64,000 bases of DNA, taken from contig JAUXGA010000003.1 of assembly GCA_030622545.1 (NCBI GenBank), positions 86,748 to 150,747 on the forward strand. The letters are read 5' to 3'. The translations under genes and the position numbers were made by a program. Source of the stretch: a bacterium. Lineage in GTDB: Bacteria > Electryoneota > RPQS01 > DYHQ01. This document shows, in pieces, positions 30,826 to 46,368 of this stretch (positions are counted from its first letter, which is position 1; each line of letters begins with the position of its first letter). The notes beneath the pieces were generated by a model. It was not told where the DNA came from and did not search any database. It saw nothing but the letters and a program-made list of their open reading frames with translations.

Positions 30826-32685
30826 TTATTTAACCAACAACAACTTCCTCACCTGCGCAAATCCCTCCGCTTCCATCCGGCACAGATAAATTCCCGACGG
30901 CATCCCGGCAGCATCCCATGTCATCGAATAAGAACCGGCGGAATGCTCTTCATGAGTCAGCGTTGTCACTTCACGCCCTAATAAATCGAATATCTTCAGC
31001 GAAACCAGTCCGGCTTCCTTCACATCATAGCGAATCGTTGTCACCGGATTGAACGGATTCGGATAGTTTTGGTGAAGGGCGAATTCAGTCGGCATCGCGT
31101 CCCTGCCGGGCGTGGTGGAAACGATATGTTCGTAGAACGTTTCGCGTCCGGCGATATCTACATCAGAAATTTGATATTCATATGTAGTGCCATTCTGCAC
31201 CCACGAATCTACAAATTGATAATCATGCGGCTCGGCGGTTGTTCCATGACCGGGGATTTCAGTTAGCCTGTGAAAATCTTCTTCTCCAGTTTTGCGTTTG
31301 TACAAGACAAAGTGGTCGTTGTTGAGCTCGCTTGCCGTCTGCCAGTGGAGCGTCACTTGCCCATCACCTGCGACAGCTTGAAACGTCGTCATTTCTACAG
31401 GTAACGGAATATCACGCCAATGCTCATAAGCTCCAATATCCGGTAATGAACCCGGTGGATTTGGTCGTGGATTACCATCCATATCAAACGGCGGTGGATC
31501 AGTCGGATCTGCTGCACCAATACAAGGGCTATAGTCGTCGAGGTGAAAATCGCTCGCTGCCGTGTCGGCAAGCAATGGATCAAGGAAGATGTTGTTGTAT
31601 TGATCACAAGAATCTCCGTTAGAATTGGTTGTTACAAGCTCTCCGATGCTTGTCGGTCCATTCGAAGGGTCATCGTTGTAAAAAGCGAAATTACCGGCGC
31701 TGTTGCCAAAGAAGTCGCAATAGGAAACCTGACTGCCTGCGCCGTCCTCAAACTCAAAGTAGATGCCCGAGCCATTAGAAAAGGCGATAATCGTGCTGTT
31801 GAAGACCAGCGAAGAATAGCCGCAATACACACCACCGCCGGTGTTTGCCGCGTTGTTGCTGAGCGTGCAATTCGTAAAGAGCGGCGAACAATAGCCATAG
31901 CAATACACCCCGCCACCATTGAATGCCCAGTTGTCGCTGAGGGTGCAATTGGTGAAGGTCGGCGAAGAATCCCAACTGAAATACGCCCCGCCGCCGGTGT
32001 CGCCTGCCGAGTTGCCGCTTATCGTGCAATACATTAAGGTCGGCGAGGAATTGGAGAAATATACCCCACCGGCGCATGAGGATGCCCAGTTGCCGCTCAC
32101 AGCGCAATTCGTGAAGCTCGGCGAAGAATACCAGTTGCACAACACCCCGCCGCCGCAGTTTGACGCCGAGTTGCTGGCGATTAAGCAATTCGTGAAGCTC
32201 GGCGCAGAATAATATTCGCAAAACACCCCGGCGCCGAAGGATGCTGAGTTGTTGCTGATAGTGCAATGCGCAAAGCTTGGTGAAGAATTGTTGCAAAACA
32301 CTCCTCCGCCGTATGTATTCGGATAGCCATCAATCGCTAAGCCTTTCTCGATGAGGCAATAGGCCAGTCGGCTACCCGAACTGCCCGAATAGAAGCGTAG
32401 TCCCTGCCAGCGGTTCGAACCTGATTGTTCCGTCGTGAATACAATCGAATCACTTTCAGTTCCTTCGGCCAAGAGCGTTCCGTAGATGCGGAATGGATAT
32501 GGCCCATCAAAGTGAAAGATCGTCCCGGGTTGAAGCGTTAGGCTATCTCCCGATTCAATTGAAATATCTCCAACAACGTGATACGTTCCGGGGCCCAAAA
32601 TACCGTTTAGAGCGCCAGAAATATCCGTCCCAAAAGTCACCTGCGCACAGGCGAGAACGAGTAAACTGATTAGAGTGTTTCGCAT
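30826..32685 (-). CDS. Secreted parallel beta-helix (PbH1-repeat) protein with Fn3-like domain and T9SS C-terminal sorting domain (cassette paralog A)
   Basis: Signal peptide. About 10 tandem 22-aa repeats of type NCxISxNSAxxGGGVYC. The C-terminal 190 aa are about 90% identical to the tail of 44290-46332. Confidence 0.8.
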   Translation of the reverse strand: MRNTLISLLVLACAQVTFGTDISGALNGILGPGTYHVVGDISIESGDSLTLQPGTIFHFDGPYPFRIYGTLLAEGTESDSIVFTTEQSGSNRWQGLRFYSGSSGSRLAYCLIEKGLAIDGYPNTYGGGVFCNNSSPSFAHCTISNNSASFGAGVFCEYYSAPSFTNCLIASNSASNCGGGVLCNWYSSPSFTNCAVSGNWASSCAGGVYFSNSSPTLMYCTISGNSAGDTGGGAYFSWDSSPTFTNCTLSDNWAFNGGGVYCYGYCSPLFTNCTLSNNAANTGGGVYCGYSSLVFNSTIIAFSNGSGIYFEFEDGAGSQVSYCDFFGNSAGNFAFYNDDPSNGPTSIGELVTTNSNGDSCDQYNNIFLDPLLADTAASDFHLDDYSPCIGAADPTDPPPFDMDGNPRPNPPGSLPDIGAYEHWRDIPLPVEMTTFQAVAGDGQVTLHWQTASELNNDHFVLYKRKTGEEDFHRLTEIPGHGTTAEPHDYQFVDSWVQNGTTYEYQISDVDIAGRETFYEHIVSTTPGRDAMPTEFALHQNYPNPFNPVTTIRYDVKEAGLVSLKIFDLLGREVTTLTHEEHSAGSYSMTWDAAGMPSGIYLCRMEAEGFAQVRKLLLVK

Positions 32686-32888
32686 GGTTTTACCCCTGTA
32701 TAAAAAAGGCTGATATGAACTTCAGGAATCTGTGTAAATAAATATAAATCAACCTGCTCGGAATTGCAAGAGAATATGCGATTTTATTTCATTTTTCCAA
32801 TGCTCTAAATTCTTTGAAGAATAGGATATTACAGATTGCCGGAGGGTTTGTGGTGGGTCAATAGTCGTTGATGCCTCTTTTGTCTCGG

Positions 32889-32923
32889 CATTCCGGGCAG
32901 ATCAGGGGATCTGCCTCGGCGAG
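32889..32923 (+). repeat. 35-bp palindrome-containing intergenic repeat, copy 1
   Basis: CATTCCGGGCAGATCAGGGGATCTGCCTCGGCGAG, with the internal inverted repeat GGCAGATC…GATCTGCC. A degenerate partial copy lies at 32963-32984. Confidence 0.8.
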
Positions 32924-33024
32924 ATGTTGCGTAACCCGGCTCGGCGGGGAGCCGACTTTCAACATTCCGGGCAGTCTGCGCGAGAGGTAAACGGCACCCA
33001 CTCGCGGCGATAAGTTGGATTGAA

Positions 33025-33059
33025 CATTCCGGGCAGATCAGGAGATCTGCCTCGGCGAG
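33025..33059 (+). repeat. 35-bp palindrome-containing intergenic repeat, copy 2
   Basis: CATTCCGGGCAGATCAGGAGATCTGCCTCGGCGAG. Confidence 0.8.
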
Positions 33060-33475
33060 TTTTTATCGAGGGACTCTGCTCGGTGGGATGAATATAATTA
33101 TGCAATTATTGCGCAACCCGTAAAATTCTTGCGCGGGGAATGGTGAGAGTTTGTTCTATGCTGAATTTGAATTCTCTAAGACAAAATGAATCAGAAATAG
33201 TAATCAAGGTCTTAAATATCCTCTCGAAGTTTATTATTATCAGTTAATAAACTCAGAATACTCGAATAGATTGAGCGTTTGAGAGAGTTCTTACAGGCTT
33301 GATTTTTTCATAGGAGTCGCTATCAAATGCGCGTGCTAAGAAGGTTGCTTATTGGCATAAAATTTGGTATCTTGTATTGATATGGAGACTATCCGCCGGC
33401 TTCTTGAAAACCGGCAATCCTCCCTTTTAATAAGCAGCAGCTTTGTAAAGGCGAATTTAGGAGGAGGTAACAGCA

Positions 33476-36400
33476 ATGCGTACGCGATTATGGGTTCTCT
33501 TATTCTTAATCCCAGGGTTTGTACTGGCTCAGACGCCCGCGTCTCAAAACGTGGAAGAAACTCACGAACTTTACCGCCAGTACTTCTCTCAGAAAGAAAA
33601 CTTAGGAAGCGGGACGGGTTTCAAACCCTGGAAGAGAGCCGAGTGGTTCTGGGGACAACGCGCTTTTCCGTCCGGAGTGATTCCGGCTGGTGCACGCTGG
33701 GAAGCTTATCAGCAGATGCTGAAAATGCCGCGCGCTCATGTAGACGACCAGTGGGAAGAACTCGGCCCAGCAAATATCGGCGGTCGCACGCGTGTTATTC
33801 GTTTCCATCCCAACAATCCGGATATCATGTTCGCCGGTTCTGTTTCAGGTGGTTTGTGGAAGAGCACTGACGCGGGTCATGTCTGGTTTCCCATCACGGA
33901 TTACCTGCCGAATATTGCGGTGGGCGCTTTCGAGTTTGATCCACTGCATCCGGACACGATGTATCTTGGCACGGGTGAAGGAACTTACAATATTGACGCC
34001 GTGCTTGGCATAGGTCTGCTTAAGAGTACCGATGGCGGCGTTACTTGGGAGCAGACCGCTCTTTCATGGCCTTATTCATCCGACGGAGCTGTCAATAAAA
34101 TCAGCGTTGATCCGGTCAATCCGGAGAATATCATTGTTGCGACACGCACGGGCTTGCGACGCACGACCGATGGAGGAGTTTCGTTTTCGACTCCTTTCGG
34201 TGGTGTAACCGGTGATTTCAAAGACGTACAGCGTGATCCGCAGAATCCGGACACTCTTCTTGCGTCAGCAGGAAATCCTTGGGGCGCAGCTACGAATGGA
34301 ATCTATAAATCCACGGATGGTGGAGCCACATGGTCTCGGCGAACGAGCGGATTGCCTCCAACCAATTCCATGGGACGGAGTATTCTTGCGTATTACGAAA
34401 GCAATTCTGCGGTTGTTTACTGCGGTATCTCGGAAACGTTCAGTGCTGGAGGGATGACGATTGGAATTTATCGGAGTATCGATGGAGGAGAGATTTGGGC
34501 TGCCATGAATACGACCACTGAGATTTTCTCCGAGCAGGGCTGGTATGATATGATGCTGGCGGTTCACCCCACGAATTCCGCGCTGGTTTTTGCAGCCGGT
34601 CGCTACATGTTCCGTTCCACGAACAGCGGAAGTCACTGGAGTCAGGTCGGACAAACGGTTCACGTGGATTTTCATGAATTCGTATTCCATCCGAATAATT
34701 CCTCTATCGTGTTTGTCGGAACGGATGGCGGCCTCTTCATGTCTTATAACTGCGAAAGTAATGTATGGGAAGAAAGAAACACGGACTACGTCACGCATCA
34801 ATACTATGGTTTCGGGAACGCTACCATCGATACGAATTTAGCCTTCGGTGGCGCGCAGGATAACGGCACGACGCGCTGGCGCGGGGCTCGCGATTGGGAC
34901 TGGGTTTATGGGGGAGACGGTGGTTACTGTGTTGTGGATTGGAGCAACGATAATACTGTTTATGCGGAATGGCAATTCGGTCACCACGTTCGGTCACTCA
35001 ATGGCGGCAACTCGTTTTATCCTATTCAAACCGGAATCGTTGGTAATGGTCCTTGGGTGACGCCCGTGATTCAGGATCCGTTCGAACCGTTCACGCTGTA
35101 CACGACAGCCGGCGCCGGGCAAATCTACATCACGACGAATCGTGGTACCCAATGGGATTCGCTGGGCAGTCCGATTGGTGGAGAGGTACTATCGATTGCG
35201 GCTTCTCCCGTATTGCCGGAGAGACTCTACGCCGCGCGCGGCGGTGGTGTCTATCGGAAAGATCCCGGTTCTACCATCTGGACGTCGGCATCATCGGGCT
35301 TACCGGGTTCTTATGTGACTCGCGTCGTCGCTGCGCTGGGGAATCCGGATGGAGTCTATGCGACGATTTCAGGCTTTGGCGGCAGTCATGTGTTCTGGTC
35401 GAGTGATGCCGGGGCACATTGGGAAAATATTACAGGAGATTTGCCTAATGTTCCCGTGCAGGATATTGCGATTAATTTGAACGACGCGTCCACGCTCTAT
35501 GTCGGCACAGACCTCGGAGTTTATCAGACGACGAATCACGGCCAGAACTGGGAAATTTTTGGTTCAGGTTTTCCGGTGGTGGTCGTCGATGATATGGAGA
35601 TGCAGGCCAGAACAGGGATGCTGCGCGCAGCGACTCACGGACGCGGTTTGTGGCAGATTCCTACGGGCAATCCATCGGTGAGTTTTCTCTATCCGAATGG
35701 GAGTGAATTGTTAGCGGTTGGCACACCGATTGAGATGCGCTGGGCGGGAGAGGATTTCAGCGGCGATGTTTCCATTGAGCTCAATCGCGAATACCCCGGC
35801 GACACATGGGAACCCTTGTATACTTCCACACCGAATGACGGCGCTGCAGACTGGACGGTGACCGAACCTCTTACGAATCATGCGCGTTTCCGAATTACGC
35901 ATCTGACTTTGCCGGATCAAAACGATACAACGAACGCGGATACACGCATCGTCGAACCCGGTTTGCGCTTAAGTTCGCCGAATGGCGGAGAAGCCATCTA
36001 CGTGACAGCGAACACCTATATCACCTTCGAAAGAATCCTTCTGAACGATACTCTGGTCATCGAATTGAATCGTGATTATCCGTCCGGCGAGTGGGAATCC
36101 ATCGATGAAGCCGTGATTGCGGATTTGGAAATACGTTGGCTGGTGCGCGGCGCTTCCAGCGATAATGCCCGCATGCGCATCACTTCGCTGACGAATCCGA
36201 GCATTGGGGATACGTCGGATGCTGATTTCTCACTTGTGACTCCTGAGATGACGTTGTTCTATCCCAATGGCGGTGAGCTGCTGTATGTGGACAGCACCGT
36301 CAGCATCGAATGGAGCGCTCCGGATATCGAAGGCCGCGTACAGATTTCCATTAATCGCGACTATCCCGATGGCGATTGGACGCATGTTTATTCCAACACG

Positions 36401-36820
36401 TCCAACGACGGCCAACAAAACTGGACAGTCAGCGAACCTATTTCAGAGAATTGCCGGATGCGAGTGAGAGCGATTATGGCGACGGAAGTCGAAGTCATCA
36501 GTGGAGATGATTTTGAAATTCAATCACTGTCAACACCGTCACTTGCGACAATCCCGACGGCTTTCCGCGTTTTGCCGCCGGCGCCGAATCCCTTCAATCC
36601 TGAGACAGTTATTACTTTCGAGTTGCCATCACTGCGGCAAGTAAAAATCGAAGTTTTTAACCGATTGGGCAGGCGCGTCAGCGTCTTGAAGGAAGAAACC
36701 ATGCCTGCCGGTGTGCATCGGGTGACATTCAATGGCGCGAGTTTGAGTTCGGGAATATACTTTATCCGCGTGCAAGCAGGCTCCGAATTCGATATTGCAA
36801 AAGTGGCTTTGGTTCGTTAA
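33476..36820 (+). CDS. Large secreted BNR/Asp-box (Sortilin/Ycf48-like) beta-propeller protein with four C-terminal ~95-aa repeats and a T9SS sorting domain
   Basis: Signal peptide. At least 8 S/T-x-D-G-G-x-T/S-W motifs. Repeated module …LYPNG(S/G)E.L…I.EL NR(E/D)YP.G.WE…. The tail is PNPFNPETVITFELP…GIYFIRV…VALVR. Confidence 0.8.
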   Translation: MRTRLWVLLFLIPGFVLAQTPASQNVEETHELYRQYFSQKENLGSGTGFKPWKRAEWFWGQRAFPSGVIPAGARWEAYQQMLKMPRAHVDDQWEELGPANIGGRTRVIRFHPNNPDIMFAGSVSGGLWKSTDAGHVWFPITDYLPNIAVGAFEFDPLHPDTMYLGTGEGTYNIDAVLGIGLLKSTDGGVTWEQTALSWPYSSDGAVNKISVDPVNPENIIVATRTGLRRTTDGGVSFSTPFGGVTGDFKDVQRDPQNPDTLLASAGNPWGAATNGIYKSTDGGATWSRRTSGLPPTNSMGRSILAYYESNSAVVYCGISETFSAGGMTIGIYRSIDGGEIWAAMNTTTEIFSEQGWYDMMLAVHPTNSALVFAAGRYMFRSTNSGSHWSQVGQTVHVDFHEFVFHPNNSSIVFVGTDGGLFMSYNCESNVWEERNTDYVTHQYYGFGNATIDTNLAFGGAQDNGTTRWRGARDWDWVYGGDGGYCVVDWSNDNTVYAEWQFGHHVRSLNGGNSFYPIQTGIVGNGPWVTPVIQDPFEPFTLYTTAGAGQIYITTNRGTQWDSLGSPIGGEVLSIAASPVLPERLYAARGGGVYRKDPGSTIWTSASSGLPGSYVTRVVAALGNPDGVYATISGFGGSHVFWSSDAGAHWENITGDLPNVPVQDIAINLNDASTLYVGTDLGVYQTTNHGQNWEIFGSGFPVVVVDDMEMQARTGMLRAATHGRGLWQIPTGNPSVSFLYPNGSELLAVGTPIEMRWAGEDFSGDVSIELNREYPGDTWEPLYTSTPNDGAADWTVTEPLTNHARFRITHLTLPDQNDTTNADTRIVEPGLRLSSPNGGEAIYVTANTYITFERILLNDTLVIELNRDYPSGEWESIDEAVIADLEIRWLVRGASSDNARMRITSLTNPSIGDTSDADFSLVTPEMTLFYPNGGELLYVDSTVSIEWSAPDIEGRVQISINRDYPDGDWTHVYSNTSNDGQQNWTVSEPISENCRMRVRAIMATEVEVISGDDFEIQSLSTPSLATIPTAFRVLPPAPNPFNPETVITFELPSLRQVKIEVFNRLGRRVSVLKEETMPAGVHRVTFNGASLSSGIYFIRVQAGSEFDIAKVALVR

Positions 36821-36843
36821 AATATTTTTCTAAAGCAGACGCC

Positions 36844-36880
36844 GGGGAGTTCTTTGTGCTCCCCGATCTGTCTCTTTTAT
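36844..36880 (+). terminator. Rho-independent terminator after the BNR gene
   Basis: GGGGAGTTCTTTGTGCTCCCC hairpin followed by a T-rich run. Confidence 0.55.
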
Positions 36881-36912
36881 TTAGATTATCACCTTTCCCC
36901 ACCTGATTTCCC

Positions 36913-37764
36913 ATGGAACTTTTCCGAATCGGATTTATTCCCGTTACCCTGATTGATGTTCTGGATGTTCTGGTCGTCACGTTTATCTTCTGGAAACTCT
37001 ATCAGATTATGCGAGGGACGCGAGCGTCTCAGATGTTCGCGGGGCTTCTCGTTCTCTTTGTCTTTGCCATCCTCTCTCGAGTGTTGAACATGAGCGGCAC
37101 AAGCTGGCTCGTACAGAGTGTCGTTACAGTCTGGGTGGTCGCGTTCGTGATTCTTTTTCAGCCGGAACTGCGGCGATTTCTGATGCAGCTTGGGCAGAAC
37201 CGGCTGGTGCGAGTGCTTTTCAAAACGGAAGGCGCGCGTACTCTCGATGCGGTGGCTCGCGCCGCCGCGCAGCTCTCGAATCGTCGTATAGGCGGCCTGA
37301 TCGTTATTCAGCGCGATTCCAACATTCATTCCATCGCGGAAAGCGGCGTGCGCATTCAAGGCGAAGTTACAGCGGAACTCCTGCTTTCCATTTTTCATCA
37401 GCGAACGCCGCTGCATGATGGAGCAGTCATTATTACCGGAACAACCTTAGAAGCCGCCCGTTGTTTGCTGCCCTTAAGTGAGAATCCCGATTTGGATTCG
37501 GAACTCGGAACACGTCATCGCGCCGCTCTGGGAGTCACGGAAGAATATGACTGCGTCACGGTGGTTGTTTCGGAAGAGACCGGAACGATTTCACTGGCGC
37601 ACGATGGGAAATTCGCCGCACGGAACCTCGGCGAACCGGAACTGCGCGACGCCCTAAATCATCTTTGCGAACGAGGAAAGATTGGCCGCAAGAAAAAAGA
37701 AAAAAAGAGAGACGCAAAAGGACAAGACGACGCGAGCGCAGAAGATATGGCAGCGTCTGGTTGA
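36913..37764 (+). CDS. cdaA: Diadenylate cyclase (c-di-AMP synthase) CdaA
   Basis: Three N-terminal TM helices. DAC-domain motifs DGAVIITG, GTRHRAALG and VSEETG. Confidence 0.8.
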   Translation: MELFRIGFIPVTLIDVLDVLVVTFIFWKLYQIMRGTRASQMFAGLLVLFVFAILSRVLNMSGTSWLVQSVVTVWVVAFVILFQPELRRFLMQLGQNRLVRVLFKTEGARTLDAVARAAAQLSNRRIGGLIVIQRDSNIHSIAESGVRIQGEVTAELLLSIFHQRTPLHDGAVIITGTTLEAARCLLPLSENPDLDSELGTRHRAALGVTEEYDCVTVVVSEETGTISLAHDGKFAARNLGEPELRDALNHLCERGKIGRKKKEKKRDAKGQDDASAEDMAASG

Positions 37765-38359
37765 ACTCTATCCGCATTCGACAGCGCTGAATCATCGCAC
37801 TCCGCTTCAGCTTTTAATCGCGGCGATTCTTTCGGCGCAGTGTACCGATGTACGCGTGAACGAGGTCACGAAATCTCTCTTCAAGAAATATCGCAAACCC
37901 GAAGATTATTTAGCGGTGCCTGCGGAAGAATTGGAAGAGGATATCCGTTCGACCGGTTTCTTTCGCGCCAAAACCAAATCCATTCGCGGGATTTGTGAAG
38001 CACTTTCTCGGGATTACAGTGGAAGAATTCCCGAAACTATGGAAGAGATGCTCAAACTTCCGGGTGTGGGGCGAAAGACGGCGAATGTTGTTTTAGGCAC
38101 AGCGTTTGGTTTGGTTACCGGCGTGGTTGTCGATACGCATGTGAAGCGTCTGGCGTTTCGCATGGGACTTACTAAAGAGACTGACCCGGAAAAAGTCGAA
38201 CGCGCTCTAATGGAGCTGTTGCCTCAAGACATCTGGATCGATTACAGCCACGTGATTATCTGGCACGGTCGCCGCATTTGCAACGCCCGCAAGCCGAAAT
38301 GCTTGGAGTGTCCAGTCGAAGATATTTGTCCACGTGAAGGAGTAACGACAAGCGCTTAA
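37682..38359 (+). CDS. nth: Endonuclease III (Nth), HhH-GPD with a 4Fe-4S cluster
   Basis: LLIAAILSAQCTD, LPGVGRKTANVVL and the C-terminal C-x6-C-x2-C-x5-C cluster (CNARKPKCLECPVEDIC). The start is uncertain because it overlaps the cdaA 3' end in another frame. Confidence 0.8.
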   Translation: MAARKKKKRETQKDKTTRAQKIWQRLVELYPHSTALNHRTPLQLLIAAILSAQCTDVRVNEVTKSLFKKYRKPEDYLAVPAEELEEDIRSTGFFRAKTKSIRGICEALSRDYSGRIPETMEEMLKLPGVGRKTANVVLGTAFGLVTGVVVDTHVKRLAFRMGLTKETDPEKVERALMELLPQDIWIDYSHVIIWHGRRICNARKPKCLECPVEDICPREGVTTSA

Positions 38360-38383
38360 TACTTTCTGACAAAAAAAGAAAAA

Positions 38384-38412: not shown

Positions 38413-38433
38413 TTTTCGTTGAACGCTGAAGCA

Positions 38434-39164: not shown

Positions 39165-41045
39165 CTATTCCATCGCACTTAGAAGTTCCATCGATTTCTT
39201 GGGATTCATCAGCCGGATTTCCCGGTCACCTGCGGAAGTGACATCAGAGCCGCGGATGATTAAATCGCGAATTTGCGCCGGAGTTAAATCGGGCTTCACC
39301 GCGAACAGTTTACCGGCGAGGTTTGTGGTATTTGGGGAGGACATCGAGGTGCCGGACAGTTTCATTTCATCGCCGCCGGGAACATAGCTGAGCACTTCAA
39401 AGCCGTTTGAATACACATCCACTTTACCGAAGCTCGTAAAGTTAGTCTCGTCACCGGCCTGATCCACCGCTCCGACAGACATGATGTTCGGCAAATCGTA
39501 GGCACTGGGATAAAACTCCTCAAAGACCACATCATTGTTCGCGTTACCTGCCGATGTGATAAAGAGAATGTCCGGCGCGTTTTTGATCGCCGCATAGAGA
39601 GCCTTATTGACGATTTCAAAAATCTGACGCGCCAGAACCTTGCGTTCTTCCGGAGTACCACCGGCGTTGTTGGCTTCCAGAGCCGACTCCACGTCAGCGA
39701 GAGAACCGCCCCAGCTCATATTTACAGCGCGGACTCCCTGTGTTTTGAAATACTCGATGGCTTCTTCAATGGCTTTCGCATCTTTTTTGGCTTGCGCAAT
39801 CGTTGGTTCCTCAGGAATCAGGTGATGATCGTACGTGAGGCGAGCTGCTAAAATCCGCGCAAACGGATTTCCTTTCGTGGTAATACCGGCGACGTGAGTG
39901 CCGTGGCAATAGTTGCCGTATTTCGAGATGCCTTCAATAAACGGTTTCACCGAATCCTGCGCCAGAGTGCTGAGGAGCTTTTTCAAGTCTTGTGCTTCCG
40001 GGCTGTCGATGCCGGATGTGATGTCCGTCAGCCCTTTCATCTGCTTTTGCAAACGCGGGCGTTCTTTGGCAACATCTCCGATAGGATAAAGCAAATCGGG
40101 TGTTTTATCCGCATGCAAGGTGTACGCGATACCGAATACATCATCGACGTAGCCGTTATTATCATCGTCTTTTTTATTGTTCGGTATTTCCTTAGTATTG
40201 AGCCACATTTGATTTGTGAAAATATCTGTATCCACACCCGAATCCCAGACAGCCAAAACAACGGGGGCTTTACCGTCTTTTGGTGTCAAAGCGATGTCGC
40301 GCTCCGCCCAGATGTCTGGTTTTTCGACTTTGTGCGCGTCGATGGTTTCTGCATATATGGCTGCCATTTCATCTTTAAGCGGCAGGTAAGTGCGAACCAT
40401 AAAGGCGTTGTTTAAAAGACCGGTCGCGATATCCTTACTCATCTCGCCGCCGCTTTGGTCCAGCATCGGCTGGATTCTGGATTCAATCAATCCCGCGATA
40501 AGATTCCGGGAGAGGATTTCTGAGCTGCCTTTCCTCTGCTTGATGTCGGCTTCGCAATCTGCATAGGGTAGCGCATCGACCATTTTTTTCATTTCCGCGC
40601 GGAAATTCGCTGTGAAATCGCCGCTGCCTGAACGCTTGGCTTTGATAAAGGCTTGTGTGAACAGTCCGGTCATGAGCCGTGTGGCCAGCTTATCTTCAAG
40701 CTTTTTCCGCTTCTCAAGAAGTTCGAGGTACGTGTCGTAATCGCCTTCCAGCATAGCGATGATGCCGAGGTCGCCATAGTATCCCTGCAGCGTGGTTCTA
40801 TCGTCGATCTCATACGTGTCCAGATCTTTTTCCAGATCCTTTCTAATTTCGGCGGCGAGTTTCATCACCGCGGCGTCATCGTCGAGCCAATCAACAGCGT
40901 TTCCGTCAATCTTGTACGTGTACCGGGGTAAATCGTCCAGCTTCTCGATTTTGATTTTTTCCGCAGAAAGGGACGTCAGGCTTGTCCCGAAAAGCAGAGC
41001 AAAACAGCCAAACCAGATTGCCGCTGTGCGTGCTGCGCGTTTCAT
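39165..41045 (-). CDS. S8 family subtilisin-like serine peptidase (complete) with a long N-terminal domain
   Basis: Signal peptide starts at MKRAARTAAIW. Catalytic triad regions VLAVWDSGVD, HGTHVAGI and GTSMSSP. The ORF track extends to 41093. Confidence 0.85.
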   Translation of the reverse strand: MKRAARTAAIWFGCFALLFGTSLTSLSAEKIKIEKLDDLPRYTYKIDGNAVDWLDDDAAVMKLAAEIRKDLEKDLDTYEIDDRTTLQGYYGDLGIIAMLEGDYDTYLELLEKRKKLEDKLATRLMTGLFTQAFIKAKRSGSGDFTANFRAEMKKMVDALPYADCEADIKQRKGSSEILSRNLIAGLIESRIQPMLDQSGGEMSKDIATGLLNNAFMVRTYLPLKDEMAAIYAETIDAHKVEKPDIWAERDIALTPKDGKAPVVLAVWDSGVDTDIFTNQMWLNTKEIPNNKKDDDNNGYVDDVFGIAYTLHADKTPDLLYPIGDVAKERPRLQKQMKGLTDITSGIDSPEAQDLKKLLSTLAQDSVKPFIEGISKYGNYCHGTHVAGITTKGNPFARILAARLTYDHHLIPEEPTIAQAKKDAKAIEEAIEYFKTQGVRAVNMSWGGSLADVESALEANNAGGTPEERKVLARQIFEIVNKALYAAIKNAPDILFITSAGNANNDVVFEEFYPSAYDLPNIMSVGAVDQAGDETNFTSFGKVDVYSNGFEVLSYVPGGDEMKLSGTSMSSPNTTNLAGKLFAVKPDLTPAQIRDLIIRGSDVTSAGDREIRLMNPKKSMELLSAME

Positions 41046-41593
41046 AGCATTCTCCATAGAAAAATTATGAGTCTTAAAGAATTTACCATACACTCTATAA
41101 GATACGCAAAATCGTGAAAAGTTTCAAGGTTCCGAATGGGTGTCGCATTTACCACGGCGTAAATTCCCCCTATCGGCGGGCTCCCGCCCGTCGCTGCAAT
41201 GGACAGGCAGGAGCCTGCCCGTAATGAGATGTTTTTACGGAACAGAAAACAAGGCGCGGAGCAGACCTAATTCACTCCGCGCCAAAAACGAAACCATGTG
41301 CGGCTCAAGACCTAAACAACGCCTTGATCCATCATGGCATCGGCAACTTTGATGAATCCGGCGATGTTGGAGCCGTTGGCAGCTTTGCCGGTTGCCACAA
41401 GATAAGAGGATGAGGCAATAAGTGAAAAAGTACATTTGATTGAATCTTAAAGGGTTACAGAAAGGCGTTATCTGGAGAGAGGTGATGACACGTCGCAGAA
41501 ATGCCCAAATTTTAAATATGCAAAATTTGAGCTAACTTGTCAAGAGAAAAATTCCGCTCAGTTGCCTGTGGTGTTAGTTGCTGGCGGTTGATC

Positions 41594-41674
41594 TAAGCGC
41601 ACGCCGTGCGGCACTACCAGACTATGTTGGCCGCGGCGAGCTAATACCCCACCGAGGCAGGTTGCCTGACCTGC
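41594..41674 (+). repeat. Second intergenic repeat family (TAAGCGCAC-GCCGTGCGGCACTACC-GA-TATGT… / …CCGAGGCAG…CTGACC), copy 1
   Basis: It shares a roughly 40-nt core with 43949-43988 and the CCGAGGCAG sub-motif with the 35-bp palindromic repeat family. Confidence 0.6.
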
Positions 41675-41678
41675 TTGG

Positions 41679-41717
41679 AAAATAAAAAGCCCTTGTCATC
41701 AAATTTCGACAAGGGCT
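41679..41717 (-). terminator. Rho-independent terminator of the EamA gene
   Basis: AAGCCCUUGUC…GACAAGGGCUU hairpin followed by UUUUUAUUUU on the minus strand. Confidence 0.6.
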
Positions 41718-41743
41718 TTCGTGTTAGAGTTATGACCGAATGT

Positions 41744-42640
41744 TCACCCCACCGTTACTAAAATCGCTCCGGCGACGCCGACCAGAATCGCTATTGTCCG
41801 TTGCAGGTTGATGGGTTCTTTCAAGAAAAAAGCGGCAAAGACAAAGATAAAGATATTGCTCATTTGATTGAGTGCCGCAGCGATGGAAGCTTGAGCGTAT
41901 TTCATCCCGCCCAGCCAGATAATCATCGAAAGGTAAGCCCCCATAAAGGAACCCGAAAGCGTATATCCCCAGCCGCGCGACGATAACGCCGAAGCCATGA
42001 TGGCGCGCCGCGCAGGATGCAGCAACAGAATCAGCACCATCACCACGACAGATGCTAAAAGCCGAACCTCGGACACCCACAACAGCGGGGAGCGTTCGAG
42101 CAGCGGCTTAATCATGACGATTCCCACCGCCATACCTGCCAAGCCTAAAACACCGAAGGTAATTCCCAAAATCAAATCACGGCGCGAAAGACCGGCTTGT
42201 GGTTTCTCCCGCGTGGCAACAAAAACGGCTGAGATAATCAGAAGCGTGCCGACAATCTGCAGCGGCGTCATCCGTTCCCCCAGCCAGAGAACCGAAAGCG
42301 ATATAATCGATGGGCTGTAAAGGCATTCCACGATAGCGGTCAGTCCTGCACCTAAGCGGTTCAGGCACATGAAAAAGAGCGTATCCGCGATGCCGATGCC
42401 GAGTGCGCCGCTGGCCATGAGCAATAGATATTCGCTGGCGGGAACATCACGAAACAACGTTCCGCCGAATAGCCAGATGGTCGGCAGCAGCAGCACAGAC
42501 GCCAACGTATTTTTATACAGATTCAGCCCAATCGGATGAACCGTTTCTCCGCTTTTCTTGAAAAGGATAACCGCAATCGCCCATGCAATTGCCGCTCCCA
42601 AAGCCAGCGTATGTCCGATATGAGATTGGATAAAATCCAA
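41744..42640 (-). CDS. DMT-superfamily transporter (EamA family)
   Basis: 10 predicted TM helices with two EamA-like halves. Confidence 0.7.
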   Translation of the reverse strand: MDFIQSHIGHTLALGAAIAWAIAVILFKKSGETVHPIGLNLYKNTLASVLLLPTIWLFGGTLFRDVPASEYLLLMASGALGIGIADTLFFMCLNRLGAGLTAIVECLYSPSIISLSVLWLGERMTPLQIVGTLLIISAVFVATREKPQAGLSRRDLILGITFGVLGLAGMAVGIVMIKPLLERSPLLWVSEVRLLASVVVMVLILLLHPARRAIMASALSSRGWGYTLSGSFMGAYLSMIIWLGGMKYAQASIAAALNQMSNIFIFVFAAFFLKEPINLQRTIAILVGVAGAILVTVG

Positions 42641-42785
42641 GAATCGCCTTTCGATTGAACTTCTCAGGTGGCCTACAATAAAGACAAATTACATCTGATT
42701 TGCAAGTCGCATAGGCACTTGCTCAAAACGCGCGGATTTTGTATATTTTTATAGACACAAACAATTTTTAGGCAGCTCTATTACC

Positions 42786-43874
42786 ATGACTCCAAAACAA
42801 ACAGCACTGACACCGATTCATCAAAGGCTCGGGGCGAAGATGGTGGACTTCGGCGGTTTCCTGATGCCCATCCAGTACACATCGATACGAGCCGAACATC
42901 GCCGCGTTCGGACAACCGTGGGCGTGTTCGATGTTTCGCACATGGGAGAATTTGTCGTTCGCGGGCCGGATGCGGAAGCGTTTTTGAATAGAACGACTGT
43001 GAACAATGTCCGAAAATTGCAGGTTCATCAGGTTCAGTACACTTGCGCTTGTTATCCTGACGGCGGCATTGTCGATGATTTGCTCGTGTACCGTTTGCTG
43101 GATCATTATATGGTCGTGGTGAACGCGGCGAACCTCGACAAGGACTGGGCGTGGCTGATGGAGAACAAGCGCGGCGACTGCGAACTGGAAAACATTTCCG
43201 ACGCTTATTCTCTCTTAGCGGTTCAGGGACGTGATGCCGAAGCGGTCATACGGAAACTAACCACAGAGGATTTGGCCGCGATTCAATTCTACTGGTGCGT
43301 TGATAATGAAGTCGCCGGTTTACGCACGTTGATTTCCCGCACGGGCTACACGGGGGAAGCAGGATTCGAGCTGATGGTCAAGAACGACGACGCACCCGCG
43401 CTTTGGGATGCGCTCTTCGATGCGGGCAAAGAATTCGATATCGAACCCATCGGTCTGGGCGCGCGCGACAGCCTGCGGTTGGAAATGAAATATTGTCTCT
43501 ACGGAAACGACATCGATAAAACAACAAATCCTCTTGAAGCCGGATTGGGCTGGATTACGAAACTCAAGAAAGGCGATTTTATCGGTCGTGACGCGCTGCT
43601 TCGAGCAAAAGAAGATGGCATCAAACGCAAGCTCATCGGTTTCGAAATCGAAGGCGCTGGTTTCCCGCGGCCGCACTATCCGATTCTTTCGGACGGCAAA
43701 CAAGTCGGTCAGGTAACCTCAGGAACCGTTTCGCCGATGCTAAATAAAGGCATCGGTTTAGGCTACGTTCCGATTGAACTCAGCGACATCGGCACCTCCC
43801 TCGAAATCGACGCCCGCGGTCGAACCCTCCCCGCCAAGATTGTCAAAACCCCCTTCTACAACCGCCCGTATTAA
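42786..43874 (+). CDS. gcvT: Glycine cleavage system T protein (aminomethyltransferase)
   Basis: The N-terminus LTPIHQRLGAKMVDFGGFLMPIQYTSIRAEHRRVRTTVGVFDVSHMGEF is highly characteristic of GcvT. 362 aa. Confidence 0.9.
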   Translation: MTPKQTALTPIHQRLGAKMVDFGGFLMPIQYTSIRAEHRRVRTTVGVFDVSHMGEFVVRGPDAEAFLNRTTVNNVRKLQVHQVQYTCACYPDGGIVDDLLVYRLLDHYMVVVNAANLDKDWAWLMENKRGDCELENISDAYSLLAVQGRDAEAVIRKLTTEDLAAIQFYWCVDNEVAGLRTLISRTGYTGEAGFELMVKNDDAPALWDALFDAGKEFDIEPIGLGARDSLRLEMKYCLYGNDIDKTTNPLEAGLGWITKLKKGDFIGRDALLRAKEDGIKRKLIGFEIEGAGFPRPHYPILSDGKQVGQVTSGTVSPMLNKGIGLGYVPIELSDIGTSLEIDARGRTLPAKIVKTPFYNRPY

Positions 43875-43948
43875 AGAGACTTCCCCCCGCCTGCTCACGT
43901 CATCCTACGGGCTGGCTCTGCCTGTCCGTAAATACATGATGTTCGGAT

Positions 43949-44022
43949 GTAAGCGCACTGCCGTGCGGCACTACCGGATATGTCCGCCCGTTGCTTTTCC
44001 TCGCCGAGCCCGGTTACGCAAC
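43949..44022 (+). repeat. Second intergenic repeat family, copy 2, plus a GCGTAACCCGGCTCGGCG-type unit
   Basis: GTAAGCGCACTGCCGTGCGGCACTACCGGATATGTCCGCC aligns to 41594-41627. CGCCGAGCCCGGTTACGCAAC is the reverse complement of 32924-32945. Confidence 0.6.
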
Positions 44023-44054
44023 GTTTCGCCGAGGCAGATACCCTGACCCCAAAT

Positions 44055-44089
44055 CTCGCCGAGGCAGATCCCCTGATCTGCCCGGAATG
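44055..44089 (-). repeat. 35-bp palindrome-containing intergenic repeat, copy 3 (reverse orientation), with a related partial unit at 44027-44048
   Basis: CTCGCCGAGGCAGATCCCCTGATCTGCCCGGAATG is the reverse complement of the 32889 copy. Confidence 0.8.
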
Positions 44090-44289
44090 CCTAAACAACA
44101 GAGGCATAAACGACTATTGACCCACACCAAACCCTCCGGCAATCTATAAGACCATATTCTTCAAAGAATTCACAACCTTAGAAAGATGAAATAAATCACC
44201 TATTCTCTTGCAATTCCGAGCAGGTTGATTTATATTTATCTACACAGATTCATCAAATCCATACCAGCTTTTTAATAAGAGGATGAACC

Positions 44290-46332
44290 ATGCGCAGTGC
44301 TTCGATTGTTTTATTCATTCTAATCCTGCCGGTTTTAGTATTCGCTCAAGCCCCGGACAGCTTGTGGAGTCGCAACTTCGGAGGAACTTTTACGGACGAG
44401 TGCAATTCAATCCAGCAAACATCAGATGGGGGGTATATCTTGGCAGGTTACACCTATTCTTTCGGACAAGGAGGACGTGATTTCTGGTGGGTGAAAACGG
44501 ATACTGATGGATTAGCACAGTCGACTCACACCTTTGGAGGAGACCATGATGACGAATGTCGCTGCATTGAACAAACCTCCGACGGCGGCTTCATCTTAAC
44601 AGGATACACATATCCTCGCGTACCCGGGTATAATGATTTGTGCGTCATAAAGACGGATACAAGTGGTTCGCTCATCTGGAGCCGAATACTTGGTGGCAAT
44701 TCTTATGATGAGGGCCAGTCTATTCAGCAAACCTTGGATGGTGGCTATATCGTAGCGGGGCAAACGGCCTCATTCGGTGCGGGTGATTGGGATTTCTGGC
44801 TAGTAAGAATGGACTCGAATGGTGATAGTGTTTGGAGCCACACCTTTGGGGGCGCCTATCCAGATATATGCTATTCCGTTCAGCAGACAACAGACAGCGG
44901 TTACATTCTCGCGGGGTACACTCAGTCGCACACAGGAGGTCAGGATTTTTACATGGTGAAAACAGACAGTCTTGGTGATACACAATGGGCGCGAACCTAT
45001 GGAGGGGCCGACTGGGATCGAGCGACCTCTGTTCAACAGACTAGCGATGGGGGCTACGTGTTAGGAGGATGGACCGATTCGTTCGGAGCTGGAAATAAGG
45101 ATTTCTGGCTTGTGAAGACTGACTCTGTTGGCGACACTCTCTGGACTCGAACTCTGGGAGGTAATAGCGATGATGTATGCTATTCCGTTCGACAAAGTAC
45201 AGACGGAGGTTATATCTTGGCAGGATATACTTTTTCTTTCGGTGTAGGAATATCTGACGCTTGGTTAGTCAAGGTTGATGCCAGCGGGGACAGTATATGG
45301 AGCCGTACCTTCGGAGGAAGTCATAGTGATATGTGCAATTCGGTTCGACAAACCTCGGATGAGGGTTATATACTGGGAGGTCTCACCAATTCTTATGGCA
45401 CAGCGAGCTCTGGCGATTTCTGGATGGTGAAGACGGGGCCGGAATATCCGAATGTTGGGTATGTGACTTTGATTCAGCCGGGGCCGCCGGATTGGGGCTA
45501 TCAGTTGAATTGGGTCAGCGGTTCCCTGTCGCGTTTTACATTCACAAATTTCTGCGATGGAACAGTGGGCTCTGTGGGAGGAGCCGCTACTGCCGCAGGG
45601 TGGATAGCAACAAACTACGCGGACTCGATTGTGTTCATGTCTTCAACACCACTCACCTCCGGCACGATTGACACATTTTGGCTTTCGCATCCATGGTGCA
45701 GCGATGTTGTTGACTGGACGGTTGGTGACAGTTCGGGAAGTGTGGATGGGCCGTTGCCTGTGGAAATGACAACGTTCCAAGCTATCGCAGGCGATGGGCA
45801 GGTGACTCTGCAATGGCGGACGGAAAGTGAACTCGACAACGATCATTTTATCTTATACAAACGCAAAGCCGGAGAAGAAGATTTTCATGCGTTTACCGAA
45901 ATTCCCGGTCATGGAACAACTTCCGAACCGCACGACTATCAATTTGTAGATTCGTGGGTGCAGAATGGTATAGCCTACGACTATCAAATTTCTGATGTAG
46001 ATATCGCCGGACGCGAAACATTCTATGAGCAAATCGTTTCCGCCACACCCGGCAGTGACATTGTACCCACTGAGTTCTCTCTTCATCAGAACTACCCGAA
46101 TCCGTTCAATCCGGTGACAACGATTCGTTATGATGTGAAGGAAGTCGGACTTGTTTCGCTAAAAGTTTTCGATTTATTAGGTCGTGAGGTGACGACACTT
46201 ACCCATGAAGAACATTCCGCCGGTTCTTATTCGGTTACATGGAATGCTGCCGGTATGCCATCCGGGATTTATCTTTGCCGGATGGAAACGGAAGGATTTG
46301 CGCAGGTGAGGAAGTTGTTGTTGGTTAAATAA
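44290..46332 (+). CDS. Secreted beta-propeller-repeat (SBBP-like) protein with Fn3-like domain and T9SS C-terminal sorting domain (cassette paralog B)
   Basis: Signal peptide. Seven repeats of about 50 aa, (F/W)GG…D.C.S(V/I)QQT.DGGYILAGYT.SFG.G..DFWLVKTDS.GD..WS.T. The C-terminal 190 aa are about 90% identical to gene 30826-32685. Confidence 0.8.
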   Translation: MRSASIVLFILILPVLVFAQAPDSLWSRNFGGTFTDECNSIQQTSDGGYILAGYTYSFGQGGRDFWWVKTDTDGLAQSTHTFGGDHDDECRCIEQTSDGGFILTGYTYPRVPGYNDLCVIKTDTSGSLIWSRILGGNSYDEGQSIQQTLDGGYIVAGQTASFGAGDWDFWLVRMDSNGDSVWSHTFGGAYPDICYSVQQTTDSGYILAGYTQSHTGGQDFYMVKTDSLGDTQWARTYGGADWDRATSVQQTSDGGYVLGGWTDSFGAGNKDFWLVKTDSVGDTLWTRTLGGNSDDVCYSVRQSTDGGYILAGYTFSFGVGISDAWLVKVDASGDSIWSRTFGGSHSDMCNSVRQTSDEGYILGGLTNSYGTASSGDFWMVKTGPEYPNVGYVTLIQPGPPDWGYQLNWVSGSLSRFTFTNFCDGTVGSVGGAATAAGWIATNYADSIVFMSSTPLTSGTIDTFWLSHPWCSDVVDWTVGDSSGSVDGPLPVEMTTFQAIAGDGQVTLQWRTESELDNDHFILYKRKAGEEDFHAFTEIPGHGTTSEPHDYQFVDSWVQNGIAYDYQISDVDIAGRETFYEQIVSATPGSDIVPTEFSLHQNYPNPFNPVTTIRYDVKEVGLVSLKVFDLLGREVTTLTHEEHSAGSYSVTWNAAGMPSGIYLCRMETEGFAQVRKLLLVK

Positions 46333-46333
46333 G

Positions 46334-46368
46334 CATTCCGGGCAGATCGGGGGATCTGCCTCGGCGAG
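46334..46368 (+). repeat. 35-bp palindrome-containing intergenic repeat, copy 4, immediately after the paralog B stop
   Basis: CATTCCGGGCAGATCGGGGGATCTGCCTCGGCGAG. It forms an inverted pair with 44055-44089 around a 2.3-kb segment. Confidence 0.8.

Follow-up and report, generated by a model that had tools for sequence, protein, structure and literature searches.

Two T9SS cargo genes with shared upstream and C-terminal modules in an uncultivated FCB-group bacterium

The KLIKK proteases of Tannerella forsythia are T9SS cargo proteins in which unrelated catalytic domains are followed by a nearly identical C-terminal extension ending in a CTD, and it was proposed that pre-existing genes had been fused to common signal peptide, N-terminal and C-terminal sequences (PMC4404884). 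In P. gingivalis, the T9SS-exported proteins Kgp, RgpA, HagA and others display combinatorial domain modularity, and the mosaic spread of their variants, which is unrelated to the genome phylogeny, was ascribed to homologous recombination or gene conversion together with negative frequency-dependent selection (PMC5266723). The first-pass annotation of the DNA examined here considered an exchange of T9SS passengers between conserved flanks to be without a described precedent, which is too strong given the KLIKK proteases (PMC4404884) and the domain rearrangement and allelic exchange of P. gingivalis (PMC5266723).

The window, a 64,000 nt stretch of contig JAUXGA010000003.1, is from an uncultivated bacterium of the FCB group for which the nearest named relatives are Calditrichota MAGs. 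Its genes A and B likely belong to a small T9SS cargo gene family with two representatives in this genome, and the family is probably mosaic and prone to recombination, rather than subject to programmed variation.

Genes A and B and their shared modules

Gene A (coordinates 30826–32685, minus strand; protein P0121, 619 aa) was identified as an ORF and its translation predicts a signal peptide, a parallel beta-helix passenger with a choice-of-anchor Q domain, and a C-terminal tail shared with gene B, with profile matches to TIGR03804 (beta-helix repeat), NF041518, TIGR04183 and PF18962. The ORF of gene B (44290–46332, plus strand; protein P0122, 680 aa) encodes a signal peptide, a delta-60/SBBP-type beta-propeller passenger (to 45454), a domain of ~98 aa designated 'GYVTL' (45455–45750) and the tail (45751–46332). 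It matches TIGR02608 and TIGR04183, and PF17164 is carried by its full-length homologues (58–63% identity). The junction between the passenger and 'GYVTL', a shuffled unit in relatives, is visible at 45451–45455 when B is compared with contigs L082, L128 and L151.

The shared flanks of A and B reported in the first-pass annotation are real, and their coordinates and identities hold. The 3' module, which consists of an FnIII-like domain and a T9SS type A sorting domain, forms an ungapped inverted repeat of 582 nt (30826–31407, minus strand in A, and 45751–46332) that is 85.7% identical, has a sharp start at P-L-P-V-E-M and runs exactly to both stop codons, which it includes. At the protein level, 170 of 193 aa (88%) are identical, in line with the ~90% first given for the last ~190 aa. 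The tail of A is predicted to form two beta-sandwiches (pLDDT 91) and, on structure comparison, its fold matches FnIII tandems and PorU. The A and B tails differ by a dS of 0.63 and a dN of 0.064 (omega ~0.10), indicating that there has been no recent exchange between the two genes.

Upstream, a non-coding repeat of 245 nt (32681–32925 and 44053–44294) is 86.9% identical, and a second tract of 42–49 nt (32902–32950 and 43998–44046) is ~90% identical. Together they make up a non-coding 5' module of ~250–300 nt with the same orientation relative to its own gene in A and B. The identity of 85–88% first estimated for the ~200 bp upstream of each gene was thus borne out, but the homology fades ~40 nt before the ATG rather than continuing to it, and the 5' UTR and RBS are therefore gene-specific. 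The signal peptides (MRNTLISLLVLACAQ... in A and MRSASIVLFILILPV... in B) and the passengers share neither nucleotide nor protein similarity, as originally proposed, though the description of the middles had missed the additional 'GYVTL' domain of B. Judged by their length and identity, the repeats cannot have arisen by chance, and for a 32-nt sub-motif the number of matches expected by chance was 0 (100 shuffles).

Alignments, a promoter scan and a REP match define the 5' module of A (32686–32950, minus strand), which includes a REP hairpin (32889–32920), a second hairpin, invariant blocks (32853–32869, 32833–32850 and a palindrome at 32808–32823) and a candidate sigma-70-like promoter, TTGCAA-17-TATATT, found by the scan at 32741–32769. 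The 5' module of B (43998–44289, plus strand) begins with a partial REP, followed by a REP (44058–44089), the invariant blocks (44109–44125, 44128–44145 and the palindrome at 44155–44170, which is contained in a 16-nt block) and a promoter-like site (44208–44236). A 33-nt block containing TTGCAA-17-TATATT is invariant in all four copies available, two in the window and the others in a sister genome. The 5' module is most likely a promoter/operator that would place A and B under the same control and hence co-regulate them. However, as the identity of ~87–89% between all pairs of 5' modules is close to that measured for orthologous intergenic regions of the two genomes (82–88%), constraint and recent common origin are inseparable here.

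The REP is an imperfect palindrome of ~35 nt, multi-copy and intergenic, often clustered or placed directly after stop codons, and changes in its stem are compensatory (ATC/GAT, GTC/GAC, GTT/AAC). It occurs at at least 64 loci in metagenomes, and is the only part of the 5' module that is dispersed. Another copy lies upstream of the 5' module of A (33025–33056, minus strand), and one in inverted orientation (46334–46365, minus strand) begins 2 nt past the stop codon of gene B, a position also occupied in L082, L099, L106, L145 and L147.

The tail and 5' module in other sequences

Seven ORFs in the window carry a T9SS tail. Both modules are common to A and B only, as the 5' module is absent from the other five ORFs and their tails are only distantly related. 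The flanks are therefore not generic to T9SS cargo genes, which favours the first-pass interpretation on this point. Within 1.74 Mb of related DNA, the 33-nt promoter core was found only in the window (two copies) and in sister contigs L147/L148 and L152, and there were no matches in the metagenome contigs searched. The tail has been reused widely for secretion and attachment: FnIII-like plus CTD tails are found throughout FCB genomes at 30–47% identity, and tails at least 70% identical are located on beta-helix, propeller, BNR, S8 and PMP passengers.

A third copy of the tail, first described as an orphan, is present (24211–24756, minus strand; protein P0010) but is only 51% identical in aa sequence to A and B. 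This 5'-truncated FnIII-like plus CTD sequence begins ~9 residues into the module, and comes with neither a passenger nor a 5' module. An IS5-family insertion sequence (24869–25744, plus strand) with DUF4096 and DDE_Tnp_1 domains and 22-nt terminal inverted repeats lies between it and an N-terminal fragment of an S8 peptidase gene (25710–26543, minus strand). The orphan tail is an IS-associated pseudogene remnant.

The same slots in a sister genome

A sister genome has the same two slots, one on the tmRNA side and one on the TPS side, with the same modules. In the window, the tmRNA gene (30339–30695, minus strand; Rfam RF00023, 154.8 bits) is downstream of A and, being 98.6% identical in the sister genome, serves as a conserved anchor on the right-hand side of the A slot. 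The inverted 5' modules of A and B enclose an 11-kb segment (32951–43997) in which Pfam matches identified genes for a BNR-type T9SS cargo protein, cdaA, nth, YHS, S8 peptidase, EamA and gcvT. Orthologues in the background differ from the sister genome by a dS of 0.24–0.59 (about 0.3), including the BNR T9SS cargo gene (0.39) and the S8 peptidase gene (0.24).

On the tmRNA side, sister contigs L147 and L148 carry gcvT (plus strand), the 5' module, an A-type gene of 615 aa (here R), a REP and the tmRNA gene. Like A, R has the choice-of-anchor Q domain (NF041518) immediately before the tail. The A and R passengers are synonymously saturated (pS 0.65–0.82 over the whole passenger, the non-repeat N-terminus included), whereas the flanks have a dS of about 0.3, and along the tail pS drops from 0.68 to 0.41. 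Turnover of beta-helix repeats could contribute to this divergence, but non-repeat parts are saturated too. On the TPS side, contigs L151 and L152 carry TPS followed by gene D, in which a 5' module 90% identical to that of B precedes a beta-helix passenger, a 'GYVTL' domain and the tail. Hence this slot holds a beta-propeller passenger in the window and a beta-helix passenger in the sister genome.

The gcvT gene is adjacent to B in the window and to the A-type gene in the sister genome, with the switch exactly across the 5' module, while the sister A-type gene retains the tmRNA gene on its other side. As gcvT adjoins the A-type gene, the most parsimonious reading of the sequences is that the 11-kb segment enclosed by the inverted 5' modules changed orientation between the two genomes. 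The sister contigs are short and end inside or next to repeats, and none spans the join of the D 5' module to the BNR block. A further contig, L150, has the order BNR to S8, and its contiguity with L148 is inferred. This inversion, with its junctions at the 5' modules, is the only rearrangement with readable geometry, and it is not a double crossover that swaps the middles.

The tail dS values are 0.50 for A–D, 0.55 for B–D, 0.63 for A–B, 0.90 for A–R and 0.99 for B–R. As 0.55 lies near the top of the background range, B and D may have simple orthology in the tail. Tails within a genome would tend to be closer to each other than to their positional counterparts elsewhere, which would be another consequence of recombination in the modules. 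A distant relative carries, in one genome, two family members whose 'GYVTL' plus tail regions are 77.6% identical in nt sequence, compared with ~69% to B of the window.

The preferred reading is that each gene consists of a shared upstream regulatory module, a 5' UTR, signal peptide and passenger particular to that gene, and the shared FnIII-like/type A sorting tail, and that the modules have been repeatedly used as recombination sites over evolutionary time because they are long homologous tracts. Homologous recombination in the modules would then have flipped the 11-kb block and replaced the gene bodies in both slots with divergent or different-type family members while the neighbours stayed orthologous, and selection for surface diversity may maintain these changes. 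The anatomy of the modules, the hyperdivergence specific to the slots and the changed neighbour of gcvT are observations that this reading would explain. The informative sites in the 5' modules (AD|BR 5, AR|BD 1, AB|RD 3) are too few to place the crossover point.

Alternative readings and known systems

The most serious alternative, which is possible but distinctly less probable, is an old duplication with domain shuffling in which purifying selection preserved the ends, via secretion for the tail and co-regulation for the promoter region, and the modules were not recombination substrates. Rapid surface-protein evolution and rearrangements of unrelated origin would then account for the differences from the sister genome. 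The omega and dS of the tail, which point to an old divergence under strong purifying selection, its occurrence throughout FCB genomes, its attachment to many passenger types, the roughly star-like 5' copies with invariant blocks, and other synteny breaks (such as a MTase indel and an X/Y gene by EamA) at REP-containing spacers rather than modules all fit this. However, it does not predict a change of gcvT neighbour exactly across the 5' module with the tmRNA gene retained, nor an A/R divergence that declines through the tail to the tmRNA gene, as expected of recombination end points. The tails of A and B are also closer than the positional counterparts A and R, within-genome likeness recurs in a second genome, and neighbouring cargo genes evolve normally.

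A programmed, frequent cassette exchange of passengers within a cell lineage, the strong version of the antigenic-variation-like mechanism of the first-pass annotation, is very unlikely. It would suit the sharp module boundaries and unrelated middles, the different passenger types behind the same 5' module of one slot in sister genomes, and the inverted layout, which would allow a swap via two inversions. However, the A and B flanks are only 86–87% identical, both genes are complete with promoter modules and show no asymmetry between an expression site and silent cassettes, there are no promoterless passenger cassettes in the window, the orphan is a passenger-less tail remnant beside an IS, and only two copies were seen per genome. 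Neither an invertase nor a DGR reverse transcriptase, nor any other dedicated recombinase, is near A or B, and the only integrase is part of the tmRNA island. There is consequently no evidence for programming and, of the exchange itself, what stands is that slot contents differ in the sister genome, not a recent exchange between A and B.

Slightly less credible again is that the 5' module is a MITE-like mobile promoter element inserted twice independently, with the shared tail accidental. Its distal end is a hairpin of the dispersed REP family, and inverted-orientation REPs flank gene B, but the promoter-proximal ~200 nt are confined, in both genomes, to the region upstream of the two family genes, neither terminal inverted repeats nor target duplications bound the module, and chance is unlikely to have placed both copies in front of members of one tail family. 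Least probable is that chimeric or mis-oriented contigs joined at repeats mimic the inversion and mosaicism: all sequences are from metagenome assemblies and sister contigs end in or beside repeats, but repeats of ~87% identity and <600 nt are too divergent to collapse, the modules are internal to long contigs, and the gcvT–5' module–R–tmRNA join (L147 and L148, 99.97% identical) and gene D (L151 and L152, 100% identical over 2117 nt) were each recovered in two assemblies.

Choice-of-anchor NCBIfam families, such as choice-of-anchor Q (NF041518), are defined by their position next to one of several alternative C-terminal domains for sorting or anchoring, so that the modular swapping of tails is a recognised pattern. 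A and R carry the choice-of-anchor Q domain directly ahead of the tail, though the family concept covers protein architecture only and not promoters or slots. REP/BIME repetitive extragenic palindromes are established in Enterobacteria and Pseudomonas, and the REP described here resembles them in being palindromic, multi-copy, intergenic, clustered and often post-stop, but is a lineage-specific sequence family, one copy of which makes up the distal end of the shared 5' module. Chromosomal inversions by homologous recombination occur between inverted paralogues, for instance rRNA operons or IS copies, and inverted homologous tracts here likewise bound a segment that apparently differs in orientation between related genomes. 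However, these tracts are cargo promoter modules of ~250–300 bp and ~87% identity, short and divergent for RecA-dependent exchange, and such inversions should therefore be rare.

The P. gingivalis variants are from strains of one cultured species and involve repeats within coding adhesin regions, whereas here two uncultured sister genomes are compared, and what is conserved is a promoter module and a tail, with an apparent 11-kb inversion. As in the KLIKK proteases, unrelated passenger families in one genome are placed on a near-common C-terminal part ending in a CTD. A and B differ from these in that the upstream sequence they have in common (REP, operator-like blocks and promoter) is non-coding and the signal peptides differ, in having only two members per genome, on opposite strands with 12 kb between them and without upstream inhibitor-lipoprotein genes, in having an FnIII-like domain in the tail where KLIKK proteases have region A and variable region B, and in belonging to a lineage outside Bacteroidota.

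Common ends of the two cargo genes

An inverted repeat of 582 nt, ungapped and with 85.7% identity, was found within the window between 30826-31407 and 45751-46332, and makes up the last 193 codons and the stop codon of both gene A (30826-32685, minus strand, 619 aa) and gene B (44290-46332, plus strand, 680 aa). The identity begins abruptly at the residues P-L-P-V-E-M and extends precisely to the stop codons, and the two 193-aa tails share 88% aa identity. Two further inverted repeats were found upstream of the genes, one of 245 nt and 86.9% identity (32681-32925 and 44053-44294) and one of about 90% identity (32902-32950 and 43998-44046), and the first-pass annotation had reported the positions and percentages of the A/B repeats correctly. 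The upstream identity starts at a palindromic element and persists until ~40 nt short of the ATG; it then decays and, ATGCG excepted, stops 5' of the start codon. The 5' UTR/RBS, the signal peptides and the passengers of A and B are unrelated; both N-termini, which read as putative Sec signal peptides, have a basic residue and a hydrophobic stretch.

Comparison of the A and B tails by the Nei-Gojobori method gave dS 0.63, dN 0.064 and omega 0.10. This dS rules out a recent exchange of the tail between A and B, and the low omega indicates strong purifying selection on the tail protein. The 5' modules of A and B are 13% different.

The tails of A and B matched TIGR04183 (38.4 and 38.9 bits; cutoff 23) and PF18962 (38 and 37 bits; cutoff 27), and the type A sorting domain lies at the extreme C-terminus of both, up to the last residues, as predicted for T9SS type A cargo. 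The structure model of the tail (20 homologues, pLDDT 91) predicts two beta-sandwiches, and its fold matches were tandem FnIII pairs and PorU of P. gingivalis. The passenger of A combines a parallel beta-helix with a choice-of-anchor Q domain, and that of B is a beta-propeller of the delta-60/SBBP type followed by a domain of ~98 aa (45455-45750), here called GYVTL. No gene for the T9SS machinery (PorK/L/M/N, SprA/Sov or PorU/V) was seen in the 64-kb window, and the presence of a T9SS in this genome is implied by the seven tail-bearing ORFs that a home-made tail HMM identified there.

These ORFs are 31-1155, 5718-6824, the orphan tail at 24211-24756, A, 33476-36820, B and 56716-59112. The product of 5718-6824 has EF-hand/dockerin-like calcium-binding repeats, encoded by three tandem units of 207 nt (6068-6688; 100, 80 and 64% identity). 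Only A and B have the common 5' module or tails that are more than 51% identical. The first-pass annotation had noted that a generic promoter and sorting domain would be found on every T9SS cargo gene of this organism; the modules occur in two of the seven tail ORFs in the window, and the flanks are thus not generic. In a tail-protein scan of genome contigs, the NYPNPFNP tail motif was ubiquitous and the tail relatives were 30-47% identical among the matches listed. A query of four tails in tandem recovered long multidomain homologues and long paralogues, and tails with at least 70% identity were found on beta-helix, propeller, BNR, S8 and PMP-repeat passengers. Chimeras are among them, such as P0270, in which GYVTL and the tail come after an A-like N-terminus and which is possibly a third family member, and P0275 is an S8-GYVTL-FnIII-CTD protein in relatives. 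The nearest homologues carry Calditrichota-like names.

The 5' module consists, in order, of a REP-like hairpin (GCCGAGGCAGATC-NCCN-GATCTGCCCGGAATG), a second small hairpin, whose stem is conserved and whose loop varies, invariant blocks that include the palindrome ATTCTT-CA-AAGAAT, and a sigma-70-like site, TTGCAA-17-TATATT, predicted from a promoter scan and alignment at 44208-44236 (B) and 32741-32769 (A). In 1.74 Mb of related DNA, the 33-nt promoter core was present in two copies in the window and otherwise only in the contigs of a sister genome; a 24-nt query for the core had no matches in metagenome contigs. An Rfam search with the 5' module was without matches, and a structured RNA was rejected as unsupported: in an RNAalifold comparison of three copies, one pair was compensatory and the covariation term was -0.43 kcal/mol, and the single-sequence folding z-scores (-1.6 and -4.4) were driven by the REP hairpin. 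As the blocks are invariant in four copies, we think that the 5' module is probably a promoter carrying operator-like sites, by which A and B would be co-regulated. Its conservation could equally be explained by a common origin near the species split.

Counterparts in a sister genome and in more distant relatives

The proteins of the source genome are in the public protein collection, on a single NCBI contig of 229,905 nt. The sister contigs, from ENA assemblies ERZ25748485, ERZ23498918 and ERZ23499000, were reached via 90%-cluster members of gcvT, the BNR gene and the trehalose-6-phosphate synthase (TPS) gene, and the comparison is based on metagenome assemblies of two genomes and fragments. 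Ten orthologue pairs had dS values of 0.24-0.59 (median ~0.34), with wide errors as dS values here are drawn from 130-450 synonymous sites, and orthologous intergenic DNA was 82-88% identical. The divergence of another cargo gene, that for the BNR protein (dS 0.39), and of the S8 peptidase gene (dS 0.24) was normal.

In the sister genome (contigs L147/L148), the order is gcvT, 5' module, a beta-helix gene of 615 aa (R, colinear with A), REP and tmRNA, and gcvT is thus next to the A-type gene there and next to B in the window. An A-type gene adjoins the tmRNA gene, which is 98.6% identical, in both genomes. R and A share 66% aa identity. Synonymous sites are saturated (pS 0.65-0.82) across the whole passenger, including the non-repeat N-terminus, and pS declines along the tail from 0.68 to 0.41. 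The tails are closer within a genome than between counterparts elsewhere (dS 0.63 for A and B versus 0.90 for A and R).

At the second position, the TPS gene is next to a methyltransferase gene and B in the window and next to gene D (676 aa; L151/L152) in the sister. The 149 nt upstream of D are the 5' module, with 90% identity to that of B and 85% to that of A. The passenger of D is a beta-helix, not a propeller, and its GYVTL and tail are 83.5% identical to those of B, its tail being 87.8% identical to that of A. The 285-aa SAM-methyltransferase gene (46387-47244), located between B and TPS, has no counterpart in the sister, where D directly abuts TPS (L151), and it is therefore treated as an indel beside a REP.

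The order in the sister contigs is TPS-D(-)-5' module, then BNR...S8 (L150), then gcvT-5' module-R-tmRNA, and in the reverse-complemented window it is TPS-methyltransferase-B(-)-5' module-gcvT...BNR-5' module-A-tmRNA. The outer flanks are alike, the block between them has the opposite orientation, and each of its two junctions falls at one of the inverted 5' modules. An inversion of the BNR-gcvT block between the two genomes is the most parsimonious reading and is probably correct, though not proven, as the sister contigs stop in repeats and the join of L150 to L148 is inferred; for a link via the gene beside EamA, neither an overlap nor homology to an 804-aa gene of the more distant locus L082 was found. 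In the 5' module, derived states in common numbered 23 for B and R (gcvT side) and 12 for A and R; these counts and the four-way site patterns (AD|BR, 5; AR|BD, 1; AB|RD, 3) agree weakly with an inversion. The ~20 nt that directly precede the ATG of R resemble the sequence at A.

In more distant relatives, with a gcvT dS of about 2, L081 carries an A-type gene with REP and a promoter-like site upstream, and L149 carries a B-type gene in a different context. A third type, with a CBM-like passenger, GYVTL and tail, was found at the gcvT position in L082 (GCA_020724065.1; 8495-10624), where a frameshift or stop splits it into ORFs of 492 and 207 aa. The B-type gene in L149, from the same assembly, is also split (117 and 508 aa), with a run of N in the contig, and the two split genes are either pseudogenes or assembly errors. 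The GYVTL and tail of two members in this distant genome are 77.6% identical in nucleotide sequence to one another, versus ~69% to B in the window.

Dispersed repeats, the probable tmRNA island and the orphan tail

The REP-like hairpin belongs to a lineage-specific family with the consensus GCCGAGGCAG-N10-CTGCCCGGAAT, found in five copies in the window (32889-32920, 33025-33056, 41654-41678, 44058-44089 and 46334-46365) and at a minimum of 64 loci in public metagenomes (L083-L146), the majority away from tail genes. It is a short, multi-copy, intergenic hairpin palindrome with compensatory stem variants (ATC/GAT, GTC/GAC and GTT/AAC), as in REP families, for which a cognate RAYT (IS200/IS605-like) transposase is a further membership criterion. 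It often starts 0-15 nt 3' of a stop codon. A role as a 3' element specific to T9SS genes was rejected, with ~15 of 71 copies within ~250 nt downstream of a tail gene, and as most copies lie elsewhere the REP was regarded as generic. Other small intergenic repeats, also dispersed and of at least two kinds, were seen, and sister contigs tend to stop at them (30768-30809 and 5415-5455 in the window; L081 11002-11047; L150 1-67; L151 6030-6100; L082 10775-10805). One is of the form GACC...GGTC, and the second, a hairpin headed by GTAG (GTAGGGGCGGAC...GTCCGCCC), has a form typical of RAYT-type REPs.

Between A and B lie genes for the BNR-type T9SS cargo, cdaA, nth, a YHS-domain protein, the S8 peptidase, EamA and gcvT, and beyond B the methyltransferase gene is followed by a trehalose operon. 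In the spacer that separates the EamA gene from the S8 peptidase gene (41245-41566), a remnant (59 nt, 90% identity to L082), also present in L150, is similar to the 3' terminus of a glutamate dehydrogenase gene, and an extra gene appears to lie between this spacer and EamA in the sister. Elsewhere in the window, a cobalamin riboswitch (RF00174; 56388-56582, minus strand, 95 bits) is upstream of a 777-aa ORF (53999-56332), and two adjacent paralogous Ser/Thr kinase-TPR genes (1005 and 915 aa) that have a 300-nt repeat of 64% identity in common are followed by an FHA-GAF-SpoIIE phosphatase gene, in what looks like a signalling cluster (8964-16241).

Downstream of A, the 3' end of the tmRNA gene (30339-30695, minus strand) abuts a tyrosine integrase gene (29067-30272). 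Together with a primase-like gene (20990-24046), an IS5-family IS (24869-25744; 22-nt IRs) and an IS630-like element beyond the integrase, this suggests an island integrated at ssrA (20990-30695). No att-site repeat for it was found in the window, and in the sister (L148) no integrase was present beyond the tmRNA. The orphan tail, which the first-pass annotation had described as a third copy of the C-terminal module, is 51% identical to those of A and B and has neither a passenger nor the module's initial ~9 residues. The orphan is 112 nt from the IS, on the far side of which the same strand encodes an N-terminal S8 peptidase fragment of 265 aa, and we read it as a probable remnant of an IS-associated deletion, not a silent cassette.

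Turnover of the two positions and comparison with known systems

The data fit a recombination-prone mosaic family, in which a common regulatory module and a common export tail would enclose passenger units that each have a 5' UTR and a signal peptide of their own. On the comparison of gene orders and divergence, the positions on the tmRNA side (A and R) and on the TPS side (B and D) have a much faster turnover than the DNA around them, and rearrangement junctions appear to fall at the modules. It is possible, but rather doubtful, that these positions are slots, with a fixed promoter/operator module at one end and a fixed FnIII-CTD export tail at the other, into which whole passenger units are swapped. 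This would maintain two interchangeable, co-regulated surface proteins under diversifying selection, and would be a form of T9SS cargo diversification outside the Bacteroidota. Exchange would then take place by homologous recombination among family members and between related lineages, with diversification at the population level and the chromosomal inversion as a by-product.

The programmed cassette or antigenic variation that was first proposed is unsupported, as silent cassettes, a nearby recombinase and near-identical flanks are all absent from the window. Variation of the pilE/pilS and vlsE type involves one expressed locus and promoterless partial cassettes that have its flanks, whereas A and B are both complete ORFs, each with a promoter module, and the window contains no further module copies except the passenger-less tail remnant. 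The flanks (85.7% nucleotide identity in the tail and 86.9% in the 5' module) are not near-identical as frequent exchange would keep them. Pfam scans detected no invertase or integrase among the ORFs between and beside A and B, the only integrase being that of the island at the tmRNA 3' end. Nor do the genes resemble a recombinase-driven shufflon or invertible promoter, as there is no short IR pair around the promoter-like site and the inverted repeats are whole modules of 250-300 nt, 11 kb apart.

T9SS cargo repertoires are large, and are poorly understood beyond a few Bacteroidota. Here, certain cargo positions have a far higher turnover than the genes beside them, another cargo gene included, and the control region and export tail that these positions have in common are retained. 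If the modules are recombination handles, new passengers would gain secretion and co-regulation in one step, and the surface proteins most strongly pressed to diversify, by phage, grazers or competitors for instance, would be marked as well. Of modest practical value are a promoter/operator candidate that can be tested, a REP family specific to the lineage, and the warning that short-read assemblies break at such loci and that orthology calls are confounded by them.

In T. forsythia, the KLIKK proteases, which are T9SS cargo, have catalytic domains that are unrelated to one another but C-terminal extensions that are nearly identical, and were proposed to have originated by fusion to common terminal sequences (PMC4404884). 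The beta-helix of A and the beta-propeller of B, on 88% identical 193-aa tails that end in a CTD, are similar in this respect; however, A and B have no N-terminal coding part (signal peptide or profragment) in common. In P. gingivalis, domain rearrangement and allelic exchange diversify the surface proteins, and the mosaic that results bears no relation to phylogeny (PMC5266723). The genes described here differ from both systems in belonging to a lineage that is Calditrichota-like by the names of its homologues, in having a common upstream module that is non-coding, in occupying two fixed slots and in their association with an inversion.
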